This document shows positions 4,576-20,889 of a stretch of 32,000 nucleotides of DNA, piece after piece. The notes below the pieces were generated by a model. It was not told the DNA's origin and did no database searches. It was given only the letters and a program-made list of their open reading frames with translations. A program made the position numbers and the translations under genes. This stretch comes from Candidatus Iainarchaeum sp. (GTDB taxonomy: Archaea; Iainarchaeota; Iainarchaeia; Iainarchaeales; VGJJ01), in NCBI GenBank assembly GCA_030688545.1, contig JAUYHT010000006.1, forward strand, positions 270,001 through 302,000. The letters run 5' to 3'. Within the stretch, counting starts at the first letter, position 1, and each line of letters opens with the position of its first letter.

Positions 4576-5778
4576 ATGATTCCTAAACCATTGATTCTGC
4601 TCGTCGTTTTGATGCTTGGGTGTATTCAGCCTGAGATTCCAGTAGAAGAAAACACCGTTCCCGCTACCCCTCCCGCACTTCAAAATGAGCTAATGGGAAA
4701 TGAAACCAATGAGGAAGAAACAGAAATGGTTTCCCCCGATGAGATTTATTGGAAAGAGCGCGTGGAAGCAGCATTTGCTCCAGTAGAGTGTCCATCCCCT
4801 CCCCTAATAGATTATCCTGATTCCTATTACCAAGGTCCGCTCATCGATAATCACATTCACATTTCGTCTATTTTTGATGGAGGGCCTGGAAGCGAGCCCG
4901 AAAAAACTGATCATCCCGCATTAGGCGTCACTTCCCATATTACGGATTATATGTGTACCCTTCGCTACGATGGATCAATGCAAGCATTGACCTTTTTTCC
5001 AGTGTGGGATCCCATTGCCGATCAGTATTTGGATATTGCCAAGCGCACAATGAAAGAGTATCCCGATCTTTTTATCCCCTTTATTATGCCACCGGATGAT
5101 GACGGGAATCCAAATGGTTTTCCCACCGTGGATGCGAAAAAGTTGGATGAATTTTTGAGCAGGCATCCGGGTTTATTTCGCGGCTATGGGGAAATAGGAT
5201 TGTATGCGCGACCAGGAGGTGCTCCCGCACTTTTCCCGAATAGCCCGCGATTGAAGGAAATCTATCCCATTGTGCGAAAGCATAATCTTGTCGTGTACTT
5301 CCATTTAGGGGAAGGCCAGCAAGAGGCTTTTGAAGAAATTCTCTCGGAAAACCCGGATATTACCTTCATTTTTCACGGCGACCAACTCATTTCCTACCAG
5401 CAGGATGGAACGCAGTATTTGAGCGCAATTGAGGAAATCTTGGAAAACCATTCCAATGTGTATTATGAGGTGGATGAATTGTGGGGGGACGTTTGGTTAT
5501 TGAAACCCGGCGCGTCCAAAGAGGATTTTCTAGCGCATTTTGAGGATTATGGGCCTTTGCTCGAAAAGGATGTGGCAACCTGGAAGCCCTTTATTGAACG
5601 TTTTCCCGACCAGGTTCTCTGGGGAAGCGATCGTGGAGTTTCTACATTGTGGGATTTGGATCGCGACGTGGCGTTCCAATTGCAGGATTACGTGCGCGCA
5701 TTCATTGGAAAACTCGATCCGTCTGTGCAGGAAAAGTATGCCTACAAAAATTCAGAACGAATATTTGCAAAAAAATGA
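4576..5778 (+). CDS. Metal-dependent amidohydrolase-fold (TIM-barrel) protein, putative lipoprotein
   Basis: N-terminal MIPKPLILLVVLMLGC looks like a signal sequence plus lipobox-like LGC. LIDNHIHIS (HxH), YFHLGEG, IFHGDQ and VLWGSDR resemble amidohydrolase_2-type metal ligands. Confidence 0.65.
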   Translation: MIPKPLILLVVLMLGCIQPEIPVEENTVPATPPALQNELMGNETNEEETEMVSPDEIYWKERVEAAFAPVECPSPPLIDYPDSYYQGPLIDNHIHISSIFDGGPGSEPEKTDHPALGVTSHITDYMCTLRYDGSMQALTFFPVWDPIADQYLDIAKRTMKEYPDLFIPFIMPPDDDGNPNGFPTVDAKKLDEFLSRHPGLFRGYGEIGLYARPGGAPALFPNSPRLKEIYPIVRKHNLVVYFHLGEGQQEAFEEILSENPDITFIFHGDQLISYQQDGTQYLSAIEEILENHSNVYYEVDELWGDVWLLKPGASKEDFLAHFEDYGPLLEKDVATWKPFIERFPDQVLWGSDRGVSTLWDLDRDVAFQLQDYVRAFIGKLDPSVQEKYAYKNSERIFAKK

Positions 5779-5800
5779 CCTCCTCCCCCACGTGAACTAC

Positions 5801-5818
5801 GGGGCACTAAAGTGCCCC
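5801..5818 (+). terminator. GC-stem hairpin with TAAA loop downstream of the amidohydrolase gene
   Basis: ggggcac-taaa-gtgcccc, 23 nt after the stop at 5778. Confidence 0.35.
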
Positions 5819-5955
5819 GCGTCCTTCTCAACACGAAAAGAGAAAGGCGAAAAAATATTTCCGCGGGCGGGATTCATCCACCCACCAATGTGGGATAGGG
5901 TTCTCCCGAAAATGACCTAAAAAGAAAATGAGTGCACCTTGACTTTACAGGAAAA

Positions 5956-6030
5956 TGCCCCGAGCGGGATTCGAACCCGCGTCCCCACCGTGAGAGGGTG
6001 ATATCCTTGACCGGGCTAGACGATCGGGGC
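5956..6030 (-). tRNA. tRNA-Glu (anticodon CUC)
   Basis: Hand-folded cloverleaf: acceptor GCCCCGA/TCGGGGC, anticodon stem TCACC/GGTGG, loop CTCTCAC, T arm GCGGG-TTCGAAT-CCCGC, discriminator A. 75 nt, no CCA, no intron, T-run after the 3' end. Confidence 0.9.
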
Positions 6031-6215
6031 ATCAGTTCTATTCCAAATGATTGGCCTACGGGGGGATTAAAAATCCCGCGACGGTTTCGATCGGGAGGGC
6101 TGGCCAGTACCCTGAAATGACCAGGTGACCGTTATTTCATTTGGGGGGCCCACTATTCCAAAAGAACCAGGGTGGTCCTTTTTAGGTACTTTTCACCCCA
6201 TGAGAATGATAATCC

Positions 6216-6803
6216 ATGTCCCCCCACCAATTCCTCCGCCTATTTTACACCCCCACCCAAGTGCTCCGCCAACAGCGGGATAAGGCCTCCCTGCCCGTCG
6301 CAATGATTAATCTCTTTCTCACGGGAGCCAACGCCGGGGTCGTGGGAATCCTTTATGTCACCCTCCTCCTGGATTCGTTTGGCACGCACCCCCCGGGAAA
6401 GGCTTTGGAACAGATTGGGGGTTATATTTTAGGGGAAGGGTTCCACGTGCTACTGTACCTTCCCTTCATCTCGGCGGTGGGGGCCGTTATTTTTCTGACT
6501 TTATTCATGGCTCTCGTTTGGATGATCGCCACCCAATTGGGGGGTCATGGGAGGTGGGTGGTGAATGTGTATTTGCTTTCCATCCTTTTCCTCCCGATCG
6601 CTATAGGCACCTTTCTCGTGAACCTCGCGCTCATCTTTCCTTTGGTGGGGGGACTTCTAGCCGTGGGATGGGGAATATACATCCTTTATTTGGTTATCCA
6701 AACCGTGTCGATTGCTAATGGTATTTCTCCATCTAAAAGTATTCTCGCATTGGTTTTCCCCGTCGCGCTGGCAGTAGGATTAATCCGCACCTTCACTGGG
6801 TGA
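6216..6803 (+). CDS. Yip1-domain-like polytopic membrane protein
   Basis: 195 aa. The N-terminal LFYTPTQVLRQQ... segment followed by about five hydrophobic helices matches the layout of archaeal YIP1-family proteins. By-eye call. Confidence 0.5.
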   Translation: MSPHQFLRLFYTPTQVLRQQRDKASLPVAMINLFLTGANAGVVGILYVTLLLDSFGTHPPGKALEQIGGYILGEGFHVLLYLPFISAVGAVIFLTLFMALVWMIATQLGGHGRWVVNVYLLSILFLPIAIGTFLVNLALIFPLVGGLLAVGWGIYILYLVIQTVSIANGISPSKSILALVFPVALAVGLIRTFTG

Positions 6804-6853
6804 ATCGGCTATTTTGAAAATAGGAAGAGGGAGGGAATGCCCTCCCACTCATT

Positions 6854-7282
6854 TCAGATGCAACGTCCGGCTGAACAGGTTTTGTTCAAGTCTCCACAAT
6901 CGTATTTGAAGGCATAGGCATGGTTGACCCGAGCCCCGTCATTGTTCACGTTCACATCCTTCCCACACGCATATTCGAGGAGCGTCTGGGTATTCACACA
7001 TCCGTCCACGTACTGGATGGGCAATGGATGGTTTGGGAACCTAGCATTGAGGTCGCCCGACGTGGTGGGGTTAAACCCTCCGTCGGTGTCCAGGCAGGAA
7101 ATGACGTCATTCGCGTCCCCGACCATGAGAGCATTATACAGCGGCCCCCCATTAACATTCCTCACCGTCACTGGAGTAACTGGGATGCGGGTGATATGCG
7201 CCCACACCAATGGAGCGATGACCAACACCACCAATAGGGCGATAACACCCAAGGCGATACTTCCTTTATGAAAATCCATCAT
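6854..7282 (-). CDS. Small secreted six-cysteine protein, paralog 1 of 3
   Basis: 142 aa. Signal sequence MMDFHKGSIALGVIALLVVLVIAPLVWA|H, six Cys, C-terminal YAFKYDCGDLNKTCSAGRCI. GGAGG lies 5-8 nt upstream of the ATGATG start, with a TATA-like ttatataaa box upstream. Confidence 0.75.
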   Translation of the reverse strand: MMDFHKGSIALGVIALLVVLVIAPLVWAHITRIPVTPVTVRNVNGGPLYNALMVGDANDVISCLDTDGGFNPTTSGDLNARFPNHPLPIQYVDGCVNTQTLLEYACGKDVNVNNDGARVNHAYAFKYDCGDLNKTCSAGRCI

Positions 7283-7298
7283 TCATTCCTCCTTCCCA
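7200..7298 (-). repeat. 99-nt block identical to 7834..7932 (SD, start codons, signal peptide)
   Basis: Base-by-base comparison of the two stretches shows no mismatch over 99 nt. The first mismatches are at 7199/7833 and 7299/7933. Confidence 0.9.
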
Positions 7299-7400
7299 AA
7301 AATGGGGTAGAACAATCTTCGAATCCCGAGTTATATAAATGTATGGAAGGTCGCCCATCCGCTTGGAAATAAAGCAATCACCCCAAAGAATTCCAACCAC

Positions 7401-7478
7401 CACGCACCAACCCATGAAACAGGTCTTGTTGATGTCTGCACAATTGAATTTGAAGGCATAGACATGATTGAGCAAACC
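7401..7478 (-). pseudogene. Orphan C-terminal cassette of the six-cysteine family (26 codons, no start, stop lost)
   Basis: Reads GLLNHVYAFKFNCADINKTCFMGWCV directly after, and in frame with, the TAA of the 7479..7916 gene. The nucleotide sequence is closest to the 3' end of the 8032..8457 gene. Confidence 0.6.
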
Positions 7479-7916
7479 TTAAACGCACCATGCGAGGAAG
7501 CAGAATTTGTTGAGATCCCGGCAGTTGAATTTGTAGGCGTACACCTTGTTGGGTTGGAATCCGGTTCCATTATGGTTGACATCGCTCCCGCATGCGAATT
7601 CCAGCTTGTAATCCCCGATAGGGGAACCTAAGCAATTCTCGTAGTAAACCAATTCCGCATTCCGGTCAGCCGATCGCATGCGCAACACGCTTCGGAATTC
7701 GGGATTAAATCCACTGAAGTGTTCGGTACAGGATATGGCATCCGAGGCTTCTCCCATTTGTATGGCGGAATAGGCGATGGCGTGATCCGGGTTGAATATC
7801 GTGACATTCGTGGGTTGTATTCGTTCAATGTGAGCCCACACCAATGGAGCGATGACCAACACCACCAATAGGGCGATAACACCCAAGGCGATACTTCCTT
7901 TATGAAAATCCATCAT
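7479..7916 (-). CDS. Small secreted six-cysteine protein, paralog 2 of 3
   Basis: 145 aa. Its N-terminus is identical to paralog 1, with six Cys at alignable positions and C-terminal YAYKFNCRDLNKFCFLAWCV. Confidence 0.75.
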   Translation of the reverse strand: MMDFHKGSIALGVIALLVVLVIAPLVWAHIERIQPTNVTIFNPDHAIAYSAIQMGEASDAISCTEHFSGFNPEFRSVLRMRSADRNAELVYYENCLGSPIGDYKLEFACGSDVNHNGTGFQPNKVYAYKFNCRDLNKFCFLAWCV

Positions 7917-7932
7917 TCATTCCTCCTTCCCA
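7834..7932 (-). repeat. 99-nt block identical to 7200..7298
   Basis: See 7200..7298. Confidence 0.9.
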
Positions 7933-8031
7933 GAAATGGGGCAGTACTACCATCAATTCAGGAGTTATAAAAATGTACTGAGGACTCACTCATCCATTTG
8001 GAAAAAGAGCGACACCCTCACAGAGTCCTAA

Positions 8032-8457
8032 TCACACGCACCAACCAATGAAACAGGTCTTGTTGATGTCCGCGCAATTAAATTTATAGGCGTAGACATA
8101 ATTGGTGATGAGCCCGTTTCCATTGTGGTTTACATCTTTCCCGCATGCGAATTCCGTTTTAGTGGTGTTGTCAAGGCACCGCTCGAAATAGACTAAATCC
8201 CCATTCCGGTCGGCGGATTGCATGTGCAGGGTGCCCATGAGGTGGGGTTTGAACCCTCCATCCGAGTCGAAGCAATACAGCGCATCATGGGTCTCTCCCA
8301 CTTGTTTCGCGTGGTACGCATAGGTATCTCCCCGGTTTACTACAATCGCCCCCACGGCCTTCATCCGTTCCAAATGCGCCATCACGAGGGGCGCGATGAG
8401 CAATAGGCCCAATAGGGCCAGCCCGGCCCCCAGCATAAATGTCCGATTACTAGTCAT
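8032..8457 (-). CDS. Small secreted six-cysteine protein, paralog 3 of 3
   Basis: ORF 8032..8460 starts at TTG; the ATG at 8457 has AAGGAGG 7 nt upstream. Signal MTSNRTFMLGAGLALLGLLLIAPLVMA|H, six Cys, C-terminal YAYKFNCADINKTCFIGWCV. Confidence 0.75.
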   Translation of the reverse strand: MTSNRTFMLGAGLALLGLLLIAPLVMAHLERMKAVGAIVVNRGDTYAYHAKQVGETHDALYCFDSDGGFKPHLMGTLHMQSADRNGDLVYFERCLDNTTKTEFACGKDVNHNGNGLITNYVYAYKFNCADINKTCFIGWCV

Positions 8458-8572
8458 CAAATTGCCTCCTTAATTGGGGTGGATGGAGTACTTGGGGTCG
8501 GCAAGGAATAAAAGGATAGGTTGTGTCACCTAGCCCAAAATAGATTAATGACGACTAAAATATTTCGTCCAC

Positions 8573-9040
8573 CTATCTATCGAGCATTACCTTCTTCATG
8601 ATCACGGGTTCCAATGGCGCGTCATTCCTTCCAGTGGGGGTTTTCCCAATGGCCTGCACCACCTCCATCCCCTCGATGACCTTTCCAAAGATGGCGTGCT
8701 TTCCATCCAGCCAGGGAGTGGGAACAAGAGTCACGAAAAACTGGCTGCCTCCTGTGTTAGGTCCCGCGTTCGCCATCGAAAGAATCCCGGGGGCGTTGTG
8801 TTTCAATCCTTCTCCAAATTCGTCCGGGATAGTATACCCCGGGCCCCCCGTTCCATTACCAGTGGGGTCGCCTCCCTGCAGCATGAAGCCCGCAATCACC
8901 CGGTGAAAAATCAACCCGTCATAGAATCCTTTAGTGACCAGGTCGAGGAAATTTTGGCTCGTCCGGGGGGCTTTATCCTGGAATAGTTCGGCCCTAAATC
9001 GGCCAAGAGTGGTTTCAAATGAGATGATGGGATTGGGCAT
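8573..9040 (-). CDS. Cyclophilin-type peptidyl-prolyl cis-trans isomerase
   Basis: ORF 8573..9148. The internal ATG at 9040 has GGAGG 8 nt upstream and gives [15 protein letters not shown]... Motifs [15 protein letters not shown] and [15 protein letters not shown]. Confidence 0.9.
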
Positions 9041-9194
9041 GATGGGTTCCTCCGGGATCAATGCACTATCCGTGGGCGCTAATGCATAAAAATGGAGATA
9101 GATGAGAAGCCCGTTGATCCCCATTTCCGGGAGAGAAAACTCCTCCATTTTCCTGGAAAAGCATCTTTTTTAACTCCATTTCCACGGTTTCCCC

Positions 9195-9857
9195 ATGCGC
9201 CGTCCCTTGAAATATTTTCCCTGCAAAATGCCGGCTTTCCGCGGGACCCTCCGGGTTTTGATACTGAATGGTTCACTAAAGCACGGATCCGAAAAATCCA
9301 ATACGCAGGCATTAGTGGAAATCGTATTGCGGTTCATGCGCACCCACGCAAAAATCAAAGTGGAAAGCATTCGGCTTTCCGATCGCCATATTGAAGTAGG
9401 ATTGGGTTTCAAAGAAAGCGAGCAGGATAAATGGCCTGAGATAGCCAAAAAGATTCGCGGAAGCGACATCATCCTTTTTGCCACCCCCATTTGGTGGGGC
9501 AACCGTTCCAGTTTAATGCAGCGGGTGATTGAGCGGTTAGATGCGTTTGACGAGGAACGTATGAAGGAAGGGCGGTCTTCCTTGTACAATAAAGTCGCCG
9601 GCATCGTAATCACCGGCAGCGAGGACGGGGCGCAGCAAACCATGGGGAGCCTCATGGAAGTGCTGAGCTGGATGGGCTTTACTTTACCCCCCGAATGCGC
9701 GGCCTATTGGGTGGGGGAAGTGGGTCAGAATCCAGCGAATGACAAGAAAAAAATGCTCAAGAATGCCGCGGCCAAATACATGGCCAAAACACTCGCACGG
9801 AATATGGCATACTATGCTAAATTGTTGAAAGTATATCCGTTGGAACCCCGGAAATGA
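9195..9857 (+). CDS. NAD(P)H-dependent FMN reductase / flavodoxin-like fold protein
   Basis: RVLILNGSLKHGS, DIILFATPIWWGNRSS and AGIVITGSEDGAQQ fit the FMN_red family. An alternative ATG lies at 9228. Confidence 0.65.
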   Translation: MRRPLKYFPCKMPAFRGTLRVLILNGSLKHGSEKSNTQALVEIVLRFMRTHAKIKVESIRLSDRHIEVGLGFKESEQDKWPEIAKKIRGSDIILFATPIWWGNRSSLMQRVIERLDAFDEERMKEGRSSLYNKVAGIVITGSEDGAQQTMGSLMEVLSWMGFTLPPECAAYWVGEVGQNPANDKKKMLKNAAAKYMAKTLARNMAYYAKLLKVYPLEPRK

Positions 9858-9875
9858 TTTTTTGGAATACAAGAC

Positions 9876-10310
9876 CTATTGGGGTTTGGGATAGCGATAA
9901 TTCACCAACCACTGAATGCTGAATTGATCCTGGAGCGACCCATAATAATCCCCCCAGGGTTGGTCGGCGATGGGCATTTCTATCTTTCCGCCTTGGGAGA
10001 GCGCATGGAATAGGCGGTCAGCTTCTTCTTTACTGTCAGGATGAATGGAAAGGTGAATGTTATTTCCTTTGATTAATTTCTGTCCTAGGGATTCCAAGAC
10101 ATCGGTGGCCATCAGCATGTGACCTTGTCCAATAGACAGTCCCACATGCATCACCTTGTTTTCATCCTCTTTTGAAATAGTCACTCCCTCCATGGGCATA
10201 TCCTTGAATCGCACAACAGGGGTTAATTCCCCCCCAAAAACGGATTGGTAGAAACGGAAGGCGTCTTCCGTATTCCCCGCAAAATTGAGATACGCGTTTA
10301 CTTGAATCAT
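9876..10310 (-). CDS. VOC/glyoxalase-fold protein (PhnB-like)
   Basis: ORF 9876..10352. The ATG at 10310 is preceded by GAGGTGA. MIQVNAYLNFAGNTEDAFRFYQSVFGG...MPIADQPWGDYYG is typical of PhnB-like VOC proteins. Confidence 0.7.
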   Translation of the reverse strand: MIQVNAYLNFAGNTEDAFRFYQSVFGGELTPVVRFKDMPMEGVTISKEDENKVMHVGLSIGQGHMLMATDVLESLGQKLIKGNNIHLSIHPDSKEEADRLFHALSQGGKIEMPIADQPWGDYYGSLQDQFSIQWLVNYRYPKPQ

Positions 10311-10335
10311 GGCTCTCACCTCGTTGTTGTTTTGA

Positions 10336-11244
10336 TCAGGGGTTCCCATCATAGGCTTTTTTCAACCCCCCAATATCGAATTTCTTCATTTTTAGAAATG
10401 CCTGCGTGACCCGTTTCTTTTTCTCAGGATCATTTGTTTGCATCATTTCATTCATCGCCTTCGGAACAATTTGCCAGGAAACCCCGAATTTGTCTTTCAA
10501 CCATCCGCATTGTTCGGCTTCAGGTACCGCCGAGAGCTTATCCCAGTAATAGTCGATCTCCCCCTGCGTCTCGCATTCGACGATGAGGGAGACTCCCTCG
10601 TTAAACCCAAAGGCATGGGGATAAGCGCTGTCCATGGCGGCGAACCATTGGTTTTCGAGCATAAAATCGGCAAACATAATGGTCCCTTCTTTGTCGTATT
10701 CGGCCCCTGCCGGATAACGGGCGGTTTGACCGCGTCGGGCATCCTTGAAAACGCTCACGTAGAAGTCGATGGCTTCCTCGGCCTGGCCCGCATGGTCCTT
10801 GGTGAATAGCAGCGAGGGTACGAGAGCCGTCCGCGATTCCCCTTCCGGATGGGTCAAAATAAGTTGCCAGGACACGCCGTACTTATCCTGCACCCACCCG
10901 TACCACTCGCTGAAGGGGTATTTCTGCAAGGGCATGAGTATTGTTCCCCCCGGCGTCAATTTTTCCCACAGTGCATCCAAATTTTTCCGCGCATGCGGGT
11001 CATTAGATGGATCAAAATTTACAAAAAACGAAATGGAAGGGTTAATTTTGAACAGGGGGCCCGCACTGATTGCCATGAAATCAAGTCCCGCAATGGAATA
11101 TGAAACGATATCGCAGTCCCCGGAGGGCGTGTCATGAATTTGCGTCACATATATGATTTTCGAGTCGGGAAACACAGAAGTATAAAATTCCGCGGCCTCT
11201 TTTGCTTCTTTGTCAAACCATAGGTGGGGGGCGATATTTGACAT
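10336..11244 (-). CDS. Two-domain VOC-family protein (3-demethylubiquinone-9 3-methyltransferase-domain type, duplicated)
   Basis: ORF 10336..11259 (GTG), ATG at 11244. It contains two similar halves (IAPHLWFDKEAKEAAEFYTSVF...YGVSWQL and LVPSLLFTKDHAGQAEEAIDFYVSVF...FGVSWQI). Confidence 0.7.
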   Translation of the reverse strand: MSNIAPHLWFDKEAKEAAEFYTSVFPDSKIIYVTQIHDTPSGDCDIVSYSIAGLDFMAISAGPLFKINPSISFFVNFDPSNDPHARKNLDALWEKLTPGGTILMPLQKYPFSEWYGWVQDKYGVSWQLILTHPEGESRTALVPSLLFTKDHAGQAEEAIDFYVSVFKDARRGQTARYPAGAEYDKEGTIMFADFMLENQWFAAMDSAYPHAFGFNEGVSLIVECETQGEIDYYWDKLSAVPEAEQCGWLKDKFGVSWQIVPKAMNEMMQTNDPEKKKRVTQAFLKMKKFDIGGLKKAYDGNP

Positions 11245-11377
11245 GAATACAATAAGCACCTAAACCGTTTAATATGAAATGGTCAAAAGAAAAAAAGATC
11301 CAAGTCAAGTGGATTATTTGGTCTCACAGATTCAGTGCGGTCTGGACCACAAACCAAACCCCAATCAATGACTTCTT

Positions 11378-11478
11378 CCCCGGCCTAAAGGCCGGGGTAT
11401 CCGATATGGGAAGGATGTCACCTACTCGCGTGATCGCTCGCCAAAAAATGGGCGACTCACGGTCGCCCTAAAGGGCGA
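11378..11478. other. Two GC-stem / TAAA-loop hairpins in the intergenic region (possible small structured RNA or terminators)
   Basis: ccccggcc-taaa-ggccgggg (11378-11397) and tcgccc-taaa-gggcga (11463-11478), with a further tcgcc/ggcga pairing between them. Strand unknown. Confidence 0.3.
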
Positions 11479-11488
11479 GGTATAAACC

Positions 11489-11520
11489 TTTTTGATGAAA
11501 CTTTTTTCTAAAAAGTTTCA
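11489..11520 (-). terminator. Copy of the T-tract palindromic element, 30 nt 3' of the multicopper oxidase stop
   Basis: tttttgatgaaacttttt-tct-aaaaagtttca. Perfect 11-bp inverted repeat 11496-11506 / 11510-11520 with T5-6 tracts on both strands. Confidence 0.5.
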
Positions 11521-11549: not shown

Positions 11550-13046
11550 TCATTCAACATGGATATTCGTCATCATTCCAGATTCCAAGTGTTCTGCAGT
11601 ATGACAATGAAGCATCCATTCGCCTGGATTTGAGAACTCCACCGCAATATCGATTGTGCTGCCCGATGGAATGAGCACGGTGTCTTTCCAGGAGGCATTT
11701 TCTACAGGTTTTCCATCAATGGTTAACACAACAAATCGTTGTCCGTGTAAATGAATAGGGTGTTGCATGGGGTGCATACTGTCTTTCAAATTCTTTAGTC
11801 GAATGACCTTCCATGAATCCATTGAAGCGGTCTGCATAATGTCCATATTTTCATTTCCAGTCACGGGGTCACGGAGAATCCACGTGACATCCTCGCTGGA
11901 AGTGCCAGCGTTCATCATGAACATAGAATCTTCCCATTCCACTCCATCGCTGCTTGTCCCCCCATGCATCGTATGTCCACCCCCCATCATGGATTCCATA
12001 GACGGCCAATCAAGCGCAATGTCATATTCCCAATCCGGTTCGATTCCCTTCAACATTTCAAGTTTCTCTATGGGGGGTAAATCAGCGGAATCTGGCACCC
12101 ATTCCGGTATATCCGATAATGCAATGGATGATGAGCCTACTTCTATCGTTCCAAAAACTGCTTTTCCGATGGGCGTTTGATTCAGCACTTCATACACCCC
12201 GGGTTGTGAAAATTGAACCTCCACGATGGCACGTTCGGAGGGGGCTAAGATAACTGCATCTGTTTCAACTGGCTCGGGCAAAAAACCTCCATCCATTGCC
12301 CGCACATATAACGTTTGTTCATCAATGGCAAAGCGCATGGGACGTGCATTTGAGACATTTACGAGCAAGAACCGAACCCACTCGCCCGTTTGAGTTTGTA
12401 CACGTGCATCCGATTGACCGTTTACCAAGAGCTGATTCCCGTACCGTCCCATGAGTGCGAACAACGTTTTGTCTCCTGAAACTTGGATTTTATTTTTTGA
12501 AAGTTGTATATCATCCAACGCCCACGTAAATTCTTTCATGACTGGCAATGGATTTTGAGGTTCGACCCAGATGAGTCCATACATTCCCAAGTCCTGCTGC
12601 CGGTCCTCTCGGACATGAGGATGGTACCAATATAATCCAGCGTCGGGAAAGATCAAATCATATTGATATGTCTTTCCCGATGCCACCTCCTTCTGAGTAC
12701 TGCCCGGGACACCATCATCTTTGTTGGCCACGCGAATTCCGTGCCAGTGTACGGTAGTAGGTTCGGGCAATTGATTAACAAAATTTATTTTGGCGTGCGA
12801 ACCCTGCTTGACTTTAAGGAAGGGACCTGGAATGCTTTCGTTATACGCGTATCCATTTTGTGAAATCCCTTCGAGCGTCCATCGCACGGGTGAGGCGGTT
12901 AATGTGAATGTTTCATTATCAGGTAAATTAATGACGAGGGATTCTTTCGTAGTCGGCAGAACGCTTGCAAAGGGAGTATTGTTTTCTACACAACCGGCGA
13001 GCGATGCTATAACAACAACTCCAAGAAGGACGAGTGAAAGATTCAT
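11550..13046 (-). CDS. Multicopper oxidase (laccase/CueO-like), putative lipoprotein
   Basis: All four copper-ligand blocks are present: HWHG, WYHPH, HPIHLHG, HCHTAEHLESGMM. There is a Met-rich insert (MESMMGGGHTMHGG...MFMMN) and an N-terminal signal with the lipobox LAGC. Confidence 0.9.
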   Translation of the reverse strand: MNLSLVLLGVVVIASLAGCVENNTPFASVLPTTKESLVINLPDNETFTLTASPVRWTLEGISQNGYAYNESIPGPFLKVKQGSHAKINFVNQLPEPTTVHWHGIRVANKDDGVPGSTQKEVASGKTYQYDLIFPDAGLYWYHPHVREDRQQDLGMYGLIWVEPQNPLPVMKEFTWALDDIQLSKNKIQVSGDKTLFALMGRYGNQLLVNGQSDARVQTQTGEWVRFLLVNVSNARPMRFAIDEQTLYVRAMDGGFLPEPVETDAVILAPSERAIVEVQFSQPGVYEVLNQTPIGKAVFGTIEVGSSSIALSDIPEWVPDSADLPPIEKLEMLKGIEPDWEYDIALDWPSMESMMGGGHTMHGGTSSDGVEWEDSMFMMNAGTSSEDVTWILRDPVTGNENMDIMQTASMDSWKVIRLKNLKDSMHPMQHPIHLHGQRFVVLTIDGKPVENASWKDTVLIPSGSTIDIAVEFSNPGEWMLHCHTAEHLESGMMTNIHVE

Positions 13047-20253: not shown

Positions 20254-20889
20254 TCATACGCCGAACCCGATCGAACTGAAAATGGCGAAAACCAGAATTG
20301 GAATAAGTACTATAAGCAAACCAAATAGGATGACCAATAATATCATCCGGGCAATGAACGCTTGCCACACCTTTATTCTATTTGCGACGGCACTCGCGAG
20401 AATGGACAAGTAAAAGCTATAGAACAACATGATAACCAAAAGAATCATGATTATCCAAGCGATTACGGGAACAACGCTCGCGATGATACTCATGAGTATT
20501 AAGATTATCATCGTTGGGATATCAACTACCGATTGCAGGTAGACGTTTTGGGCATAGGTCCCATTGGATTTGAAAAGTTTGGAGAATAGTTTGTCCATTC
20601 CAGACGTAAAGCCGAAGTAGAGAAACATGGCCACTGAAAAGAAGATTGAAATAAAAAGTAGGGCCATCAGCACGGCCCCTGCCACTTCCAATCCTGAGGT
20701 GCCTTCAGGAACCATCGGTAGTTCATCGACGAAAACAGCCAGGATCGATAAAACAAGACCCACTATGAACCCCCATACCAGGAAGCGCTTGGCCGCGAGA
20801 CGGGAGTCCGCGAATGAAAGCTCGCGCTTAAGGATTTCCCTGGGTTTGAGGAGCACACCAAAGTTAAGGTCGAATATCCTTTCGGTCAT
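20254..20889 (-). CDS. Yip1-domain-like polytopic membrane protein (AT-rich gene)
   Basis: 211 aa. The N-terminal FGVLLKPREILKRE segment followed by five hydrophobic helices fits the YIP1-family layout. By-eye call. Confidence 0.5.
   Translation of the reverse strand: MTERIFDLNFGVLLKPREILKRELSFADSRLAAKRFLVWGFIVGLVLSILAVFVDELPMVPEGTSGLEVAGAVLMALLFISIFFSVAMFLYFGFTSGMDKLFSKLFKSNGTYAQNVYLQSVVDIPTMIILILMSIIASVVPVIAWIIMILLVIMLFYSFYLSILASAVANRIKVWQAFIARMILLVILFGLLIVLIPILVFAIFSSIGFGV

Follow-up and report, generated by a model that had tools for sequence, protein, structure and literature searches.

A tandem array of three six-cysteine protein genes

We analysed a stretch of 32,000 nucleotides (nt) from Candidatus Iainarchaeum sp. 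(positions 270,001 to 302,000 of contig JAUYHT010000006.1), hereafter the window, and describe in it three adjacent minus-strand genes, named here gene 1, gene 2 and gene 3, which encode small paralogous proteins with six cysteines (Table 1). The reading that we favour, with moderate confidence, is that their products are exported, three-disulfide, single-module extracellular binding proteins of a rare and unnamed archaeal family. The three open reading frames (ORFs) are all intact. The ORF listing, the protein alignment and tblastn (E-values of 1e-26 to 3e-44 among the three paralogs) agree on three paralogous minus-strand genes, as a preliminary description made from the letters of this DNA had claimed, and tblastn detected no further full gene copy in the 32-kb window. 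The proteins are 38–52% identical in pairwise comparison and share 45 invariant alignment columns, among them all six cysteines, which are therefore alignable throughout. At the protein level, gene 1 is matched exactly by MDP2666701.1/MDZ4256908.1 and gene 2 by MDP2666702.1, each annotated as a hypothetical protein of a Candidatus Diapherotrites archaeon.

The preliminary description had also listed several sequence blocks as common to the three proteins. C-x-[DE]-x-x-[GS]-G-F-x-P, E[FY]ACG-x-DVN and the C-terminal cysteine knot do occur in all three, whereas SADRN-x-[ED]-LVY is confined to genes 2 and 3, gene 1 having FPNHPLPIQY at this place. In the gene 2 protein the D-x-D-G-G loop is gone (CTEHFSGFNP) and an NKT glycosylation sequon now reads NKF. 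Each copy has its own GGAGG and its own TATA-like box upstream of the start, again as first proposed, with 5–7 nt between GGAGG and ATG. Gene 3 could begin at an ATG or at a TTG; a spacing of 7 nt from the GGAGG favours the ATG at 8457. Transcription of each gene probably starts from a separate TATA-box promoter and translation from a separate GGAGG, and the hairpin and T-rich tract at 6829–6846 resemble a terminator closing the array.

Table 1. Positions of the array and of associated features in the window
Feature	Positions	Strand	Remarks
GC-rich hairpin GGGAGGGCATTCCCTCCC, then T-rich tract	6829–6846	minus	just 3' of the gene 1 stop; terminator-like
Gene 1	6854–7282	minus	142 amino acids (aa); intact ORF
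Gene 1 six-cysteine module	6857–7096	minus	C63 to the C-terminus
Gene 1 signal peptide	7199–7282	minus	aa 1–28; sequence-based call
GGAGG of gene 1	7288–7292	minus	
TATA-like box of gene 1, TTTATATAA	7331–7339	minus	about 50 nt upstream of the ATG
Duplicated segment, copy A	7185–7478	minus	fossil, spacer, TATA-like box, GGAGG and first ~30 codons of gene 1
Non-coding fossil, NHVYAFKFNCADINKTCFMGWCV	7401–7470	minus	70 nt; last 23 codons of a gene-3-like copy
Gene 2	7479–7916	minus	145 aa; intact ORF
Gene 2 six-cysteine module	7482–7730	minus	
GGAGG of gene 2	7922–7926	minus	
TATA-like box of gene 2, TTTTTATAA	7965–7973	minus	about 50 nt upstream of the ATG
Duplicated segment, copy B	7819–8112	minus	gene 3 3' end, spacer, TATA-like box, GGAGG and first ~30 codons of gene 2
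Gene 3	8032–8457 or 8032–8460	minus	141 aa (ATG) or 142 aa (TTG); intact ORF
Gene 3 six-cysteine module	8035–8274	minus	
Gene 3 mature domain	8035–8376	minus	used for structure prediction
GGAGG of gene 3	8465–8469	minus	
TATA-like element of gene 3, TTTTATT	8507–8513	minus	about 50 nt upstream of the ATG
Cyclophilin-type peptidyl-prolyl isomerase	8573–9040	minus	155 aa from the MPNPIISF methionine; directly upstream of the array

A rare family of small archaeal proteins

An exhaustive hmmsearch of 1.84 billion representative proteins (library-wide E-values), with a profile built from the mature domains of the three genes, gave 28 proteins that passed the cut-off of E <= 1e-3. They include the cluster of gene 3 itself (P0001), about 17 further small homologs (103–150 aa), each built of a signal peptide, a segment of about 35 aa and a six-cysteine module, and nine larger proteins with two to four tandem modules. 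Two matches, P0008 and P0020, were rejected as family members, being spurious matches to low-complexity sequence. Conservation of the cysteines in orthologs, on which the preliminary description depended, is extensive and incomplete: 16 of 20 family members keep all six, three (P0014, P0016 and P0029) keep only the first and third (C1 and C3), and an N-terminally truncated fragment has five. The two-cysteine variants form a short subfamily of 121–123 aa that lacks the C-terminal cysteine knot.

Word-indexed searches with gene 3, with a 19-member family alignment and with a module alignment returned hardly anything beyond the query's own cluster and four small relatives, and are uninformative on distribution. 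Back-translated pattern scans of the GTDB species genomes and of JGI metagenomes yielded no relatives. In metagenomes, a hand-made degenerate DNA pattern for C-x-[DE]-x-D-G-G-F-N-P added only five large ORFs with the module (two being marginal) and no member of the small family; viral contigs gave nothing. Since the scans of GTDB representative genomes and JGI metagenomes gave no small member, we consider the small family rare. On the readable contigs of its members the gene content is archaeal, with deoxyhypusine synthase, Pelota, RLI, RFC and Hjc among the genes, and some of these contigs come from 0.1-µm fractions of Hainich groundwater.

Several related loci share a neighbourhood of histidyl-tRNA synthetase (HisRS), RpiA, methyltransferase and cyclophilin genes, with the small gene either immediately following the cyclophilin gene or separated from it by one gene; in four related genomes (L005, L007, L010 and L011) cyclophilin and six-cysteine genes are again neighbours. 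Between syntenic loci the small proteins are 31–41% identical, as against 41% for the methyltransferase, 55% for HisRS, 69% for RpiA and 74–77% for the cyclophilin, so the small family evolves comparatively fast relative to most of its neighbours. In the window, the listed cyclophilin ORF (8573–9148) has a 36-aa extension, and its homologs point to the MPNPIISF start at about 9040. The cyclophilin has no signal peptide, and we treat it as genomic context of the six-cysteine genes. Two related loci carry a DsbD_TM (CcdA-like) gene and a thioredoxin gene a few kilobases from the single-copy ortholog (L003 6902–8259 and L007 1175–2570). The 32-kb window has no equivalent of this pair, which is why disulfide-handling genes are not counted as part of the system. 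Genes for FG-GAP/Big_7 surface proteins (983 and 1081 aa) stand beside or near the ortholog in L003 (846–3797) and L010 (3154–6399), and have no counterpart in the window either.

These neighbourhoods bear on the idea that the array encodes secreted antagonists, that is, archaeocin- or toxin-like disulfide-rich effectors directed at competitors or hosts, with tandem paralogs widening the range of targets. Small, secreted, disulfide-rich, tandem and fast-evolving proteins are what such a role would predict, and in one related locus a pair of ABC-2 transporter genes lies directly downstream. However, no immunity, maturation or export genes accompany the family consistently across loci, the mature domains are acidic (isoelectric point 4–6.5) rather than cationic, neither PADLOC nor PHROGs gives a meaningful match, and in large structural surface proteins the homologous modules form repeats (see below). 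We judge an antagonistic function improbable.

Export of the small proteins

The preliminary description had proposed an N-terminal signal sequence ending in an AxA-type site for each protein. This holds by our own rule-based checks of hydropathy and of the -3 and -1 positions: the maximum 15-residue hydropathy of the window proteins is 2.7–3.4, and the site, APLV[WM]A with the cut falling before H, fits the -3/-1 rule. All 17 N-terminally complete members of the family likewise have a strongly hydrophobic N-terminus ending in a -3/-1 small-residue site preceded by a proline. Export of the window proteins through Sec, with a site of the signal peptidase I type, is thus supported at the level of sequence. 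We found in them no lipobox cysteine, no C-terminal transmembrane segment and no PGF-CTERM; the first cysteine is residue 63 and the protein ends one residue past the sixth (C6). The family has 63 N-glycosylation sequons where shuffled sequences would lead one to expect 29.6, a twofold excess that is indirect support for an extracellular location; one conserved sequon, N-K-T, lies within the C-terminal knot.

A hydrophobic N-terminus followed by an all-beta domain, in a protein of about 140 aa, could also belong to a subunit of a type IV pilin- or archaellin-like filament, in which a class III signal peptide would be processed, the hydrophobic segment retained as the assembly helix and the beta domain displayed as the head. 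Two homologs, as well as genes 1 and 2, do have a K-G dipeptide ahead of the hydrophobic stretch. Yet no member of the family matches a FlaFind-type class III motif (a hand-written pattern), no match to Pfam Class_IIIsignal (PF04021) or to a pilin appears even at E=10, no pilus-assembly ATPase or platform genes occur in the window, and the proline-preceded site present in all 17 N-terminally complete members is typical of signal peptidase I. A filament subunit is therefore very doubtful.

The module recurs in large surface proteins

The larger proteins retrieved by the mature-domain profile, with library-wide E-values ranging from 1e-8 for P0010 to slightly below 1e-3 for P0028, place the small proteins in a wider setting. 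They include P0010 (1280 aa, from a JGI metagenome), P0018, P0021 and the SLH-bearing P0022, and further P0025 (CARDB-bearing), P0026 (from a Sargasso Sea metagenome), P0027 and P0028. The six cysteines of the small proteins align one to one with those of a repeat of about 65 aa in these proteins, and the motifs C-x-[DE]-x-D-G-G, D/E-x-C and L-x-E-[FY]-x-C are common to both. When a profile of the small family only was compared with a profile of the modules only, hhalign gave a probability of 98.5% and an E-value of 3.2e-15 over the 47 columns from C1 to C3, the part from C4 to C6 being aligned by cysteine pattern only. In a joint alignment of nine small proteins and 19 modules, C1, C2, C3, C5 and C6 are invariant and C4 is present in at least 90% of the sequences. 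The shared spacing is C1-x(~30)-C2-x(~10)-C3-x(15-30)-C4-x(1-6)-C5-x(4-5)-C6, and the window proteins conform to it; genes 1 and 3 carry every shared module motif, whereas in gene 2 the first is degenerate (CTEHFSG). The profile comparison thus shows the six-cysteine module of the small proteins to be homologous to that of large extracellular proteins of uncultivated bacteria and archaea, and the likeness to surface-protein repeats that the preliminary description had suggested turns out to be homology.

In the large proteins, the module is accompanied by SLH and CARDB domains, by weak Big_9 matches and by an acidic double-disulfide repeat of NCBIfam (acid_disulf_rpt); these companions indicate a cell-surface setting for the module. 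The module itself is covered by no Pfam or NCBIfam model and has no solved structure. In P0010 (L017 1581–5423) the acidic repeat, NF033662, stands immediately before each six-cysteine module and reads C-x-D-G-x-D-N-D-x-D-G-x-x-D-x-D-D-P-G-C, which suggests a recurrent two-part cassette.

The occurrence of the module in an SLH-anchored wall protein would also be expected if the small proteins were structural parts of the envelope, either stabilisers associated with an S-layer or small surface-decorating subunits, the paralogs serving as alternative or stoichiometric building blocks. The enrichment in sequons, the conservation of a single-copy locus among housekeeping genes of related genomes and purifying selection on average (see below) all fit such a role. 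It is harder to reconcile with the lack of any anchor (C-terminal transmembrane segment, PGF-CTERM or lipobox), with a rate of evolution well above that of most neighbours and about equal to that of the methyltransferase (41%), and with the great rarity of the family even within DPANN archaea, which would be unusual for a core envelope component. Taken together, we regard a structural envelope role as unlikely.

Predicted structure, disulfides and acidic loop

The preliminary description could name no family for these proteins, and our searches bear this out. Firstly, the three proteins and 39 aligned family and module sequences gave no meaningful match in Pfam-A 2025, NCBIfam 20.0, PHROGs v4 or PADLOC 2.0; only sub-threshold chance matches appeared, to Col_cuticle_N (E 0.1, on the signal peptide) and to PDC-M20A (E 0.012–0.05). 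Secondly, PDB sequence profiles matched neither the family nor the module. Thirdly, no description of the family was found in the literature searched for its motif strings, for the accessions and for cysteine-rich proteins of DPANN archaea.

We predicted the structure of the gene 3 mature domain with AlphaFold2. With the 39-sequence alignment, the model reached a mean pLDDT (predicted local distance difference test score) of 97.3 and a pTM (predicted template modelling score) of 0.88, and consists of eight beta strands and one short helix; with the three paralogs as sole input the pLDDT was 50 and the model unusable, so that the larger alignment was required. Foldseek detected nothing significant for this model in the PDB (best E 0.049, template modelling score <= 0.27) or in BFVD (best E 0.3). 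The six-cysteine domain may possibly have a new fold, as judged from the model, and the locus is a candidate for a new domain family with possibly a new fold.

The disulfides probably join C1 to C3, C2 to C4 and C5 to C6, because C1 and C3 are precisely the pair that is left in the natural two-cysteine variants, and some modules have C4-x-C5. Besides the cysteines, the joint alignment has only four invariant or near-invariant residues, G7, E41, D5 and G77; G7 and E41 are invariant, and D5 is conserved in at least 90% of the sequences. A conserved pattern of acidic residues and glycine is typical of a structural or Ca2+-binding acidic loop. Gene 2 has neither D-x-D-G-G nor the NKT sequon, and its function may therefore have shifted.

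Integrity and origin of the array

Exact matches to the window come from two independent assemblies: a Logan contig (L001, SRR13727534) is 100% identical to positions 7903–11518, covering gene 3, and a contig of a second metagenome-assembled genome (GCA_034375545.1, L004) is 100% identical to positions 5433–7541. Thus, the junctions between genes 3 and 2 and between genes 2 and 1 are confirmed. Both matching contigs end inside the repeated part of the array.

The fossil between genes 2 and 1 begins 8 nt past the gene 2 stop, shares 89% identity with the 3' end of gene 3 (8035–8104) and has lost its stop codon through a 1-nt indel. The ORF listing places it within a spurious 69-aa ORF (7266–7475). 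It is part of duplicated segment A, which is homologous to segment B from end to end (85% identity over 280 nt by blastn) and reaches 91% identity over 150 nt in the part that holds the promoter and the signal peptide. The first 30 codons of genes 1 and 2 encode an identical protein, with no nonsynonymous divergence (dN = 0) and a synonymous divergence (dS) of 0.16; in the mature domains of the same two genes, by contrast, synonymous sites are saturated (proportion of synonymous differences, pS, 0.79). This opposition of near-identical first codons and saturated mature domains shows that unequal recombination or gene conversion shaped the array. Such exchanges both built and reshaped it, leaving behind the fossil 3' end and the near-identical promoter and signal-peptide segments of genes 1 and 2.

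Across the paralog pairs, pS in the mature domains is 0.66–0.84 and dS is saturated or undefined, the single estimable mature-domain dN/dS being about 0.23 (genes 2 and 3). Selection is purifying on average, where it is measurable. Since synonymous sites are saturated in the mature domains, no claim of positive selection is possible, and the earlier characterisation of the set as diversifying is not supported, the only estimable ratio lying below 1. In a neighbour-joining tree (no bootstrap) the window genes group as (g1,(g2,g3)), beside single-copy homologs. Gene 1 is the most conservative copy in this tree, is 51% identical to the single-copy homolog P0002 and is the most ancestral-like of the three. 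The comparison of copy numbers proposed in the preliminary description proved informative: three copies lie here and a single one at each related locus that is readable. The triplication is therefore lineage-specific, and the array an expansion of an otherwise single-copy locus.

That copies decay at this locus is evident from the fossil, and gene 2 has lost conserved motifs, so the array might be viewed as a decaying or unexpressed duplication remnant devoid of current function. We hold this to be extremely improbable: the three ORFs are intact, each with its six cysteines, Shine-Dalgarno sequence and promoter-like box, dN is far below dS, and homologs are conserved across divergent genomes.

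Other genes of the window

The gene content of the window is otherwise that of archaeal housekeeping, with a family-B DNA polymerase, HisRS, RpiA, ribosomal protein S2 and five tRNAs. The polymerase and HisRS, like the proteins of genes 1 and 2, are recorded under the name Candidatus Diapherotrites archaeon. The N-terminus of an Amidohydro_2-family protein (4576–5778, plus strand), MIPKPLILLVVLMLGCIQPE, resembles that of a lipoprotein and has an L-G-C lipobox; the protein, to which ORFs in L007 and L008 are 70% identical, is probably also exported. Two genes encode multi-pass membrane proteins with a Yip1 domain (6216–6803, plus; 20254–20889, minus); the first of them is convergent with gene 1 and adjacent to it in the second metagenome-assembled genome (L004) as well, and is not found beside the orthologs elsewhere. 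Two overlapping tandem genes of the 3-dmu-9_3-mt/glyoxalase (VOC) superfamily (9876–10352 and 10336–11259, both minus) adjoin an FMN reductase gene (9195–9857, plus). A gene for a three-domain multicopper oxidase (11550–13046, minus) encodes an oxygen-using enzyme of extracellular type, which is notable for a small DPANN genome.

Discussion

Envelope parts, antagonists, pilins and a gene remnant are all less likely than the reading of the array products as extracellular binding proteins. Under the latter, Sec would export the pre-protein, signal peptidase I would cleave it behind APLV[WM]A, and its mature part of 114–117 aa would fold outside the cell into a compact all-beta domain, as modelled, which three disulfides would lock. 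The domain would consist of an N-terminal beta-hairpin and one six-cysteine module of about 65 aa, the same module that forms the tandem repeats of large extracellular proteins, where it adjoins SLH, CARDB and acidic repeats of Ca-binding type. By analogy with these, the small proteins most likely bind a glycan or a protein, as modules that are either soluble or loosely attached to the surface, and their target might lie on the envelope of the cell itself or on a partner cell. The near-invariant acidic loop C-x-[DE]-x-D-G-G and the invariant glutamate may make the contact, perhaps via Ca2+.

Several points weigh against this picture. The role in binding or adhesion is argued solely from the domains that accompany the homologous module, and the six-cysteine module is absent from the FG-GAP/Big_7 proteins that are adjacent to the ortholog in two related loci. 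Ca2+ binding is a guess from conserved carboxylates, and gene 2, which lacks D-x-D-G-G, would have to work differently if the loop were the functional site. The 21-residue hydrophobic stretch could act as an uncleaved signal anchor. As to the fold, the missing Foldseek match to a predicted model does not prove novelty, and truly novel archaeal folds were very rare in a systematic survey (PMC13607799).

The module, compact and confidently modelled, stands outside all family databases and solved structures that we searched; free small proteins and giant surface proteins alike contain it, the latter as repeats. The locus thereby offers a concrete candidate for a new Pfam-type domain, and its 114-aa protein with three predicted disulfides is a tractable subject for structure determination and ligand screening; the module can also serve as a marker for tracing related surface proteins in metagenomes. 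Ultra-small uncultivated microbes, the DPANN archaea among them, are believed to rely on contact between cells, and the greater part of the proteins that they secrete or display has resisted annotation; orphan families of this kind are numerous in DPANN genomes. If the module is a recognition unit, it would give a handle on how such organisms attach to partners. More boldly, the six-cysteine unit could be an unrecognised fold and superfamily of extracellular, possibly Ca2+-dependent recognition modules of ultra-small episymbiotic lineages, both DPANN archaea and CPR (candidate phyla radiation)-like bacteria, the free Diapherotrites proteins being diffusible factors for recognition of a host or partner, and their tandem expansion an adaptation to different partners. 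We regard this as speculative and improbable; were it true, the free proteins might prime or block the receptors used by multi-module adhesins.

Comparison with known systems

Archaeal type IV pilins resemble the window proteins in length, in their N-terminal hydrophobic segment and in their beta-rich C-terminal domain, but the window proteins have a site of the signal-peptidase-I type in place of a class III motif, and no Pfam match. The acidic double-disulfide repeat NF033662 is also extracellular, acidic and disulfide-bonded, but it is a 32-position repeat with four cysteines and, in the NCBIfam search, has no match in the window proteins. LDL-receptor class A and EGF-like Ca-binding domains are small disulfide-rich extracellular modules in which conserved acidic residues hold Ca2+. 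They likewise have six cysteines in a short extracellular module used singly and in tandem, and in them too Asp/Glu and Gly are the sole non-cysteine invariants; the pairing 1-3, 2-4, 5-6 proposed here would equal that of EGF. The window domain differs from both in being about twice as long and, in the model, rich in long beta strands, and it matches neither a Pfam sequence nor a PDB fold. The closest comparison is with the module of the large surface proteins, which has the same six cysteine positions, the same loop and set of motifs and an extracellular setting. The window proteins have a single module, preceded by a beta-hairpin extension of about 35 aa that directly follows the signal peptide, and their C4–C6 knot is longer, C-x-D-[LI]-N-K-x-C-x4-C as against C-x2-G-C-x-[DE]-G-x-C in the large-protein module.

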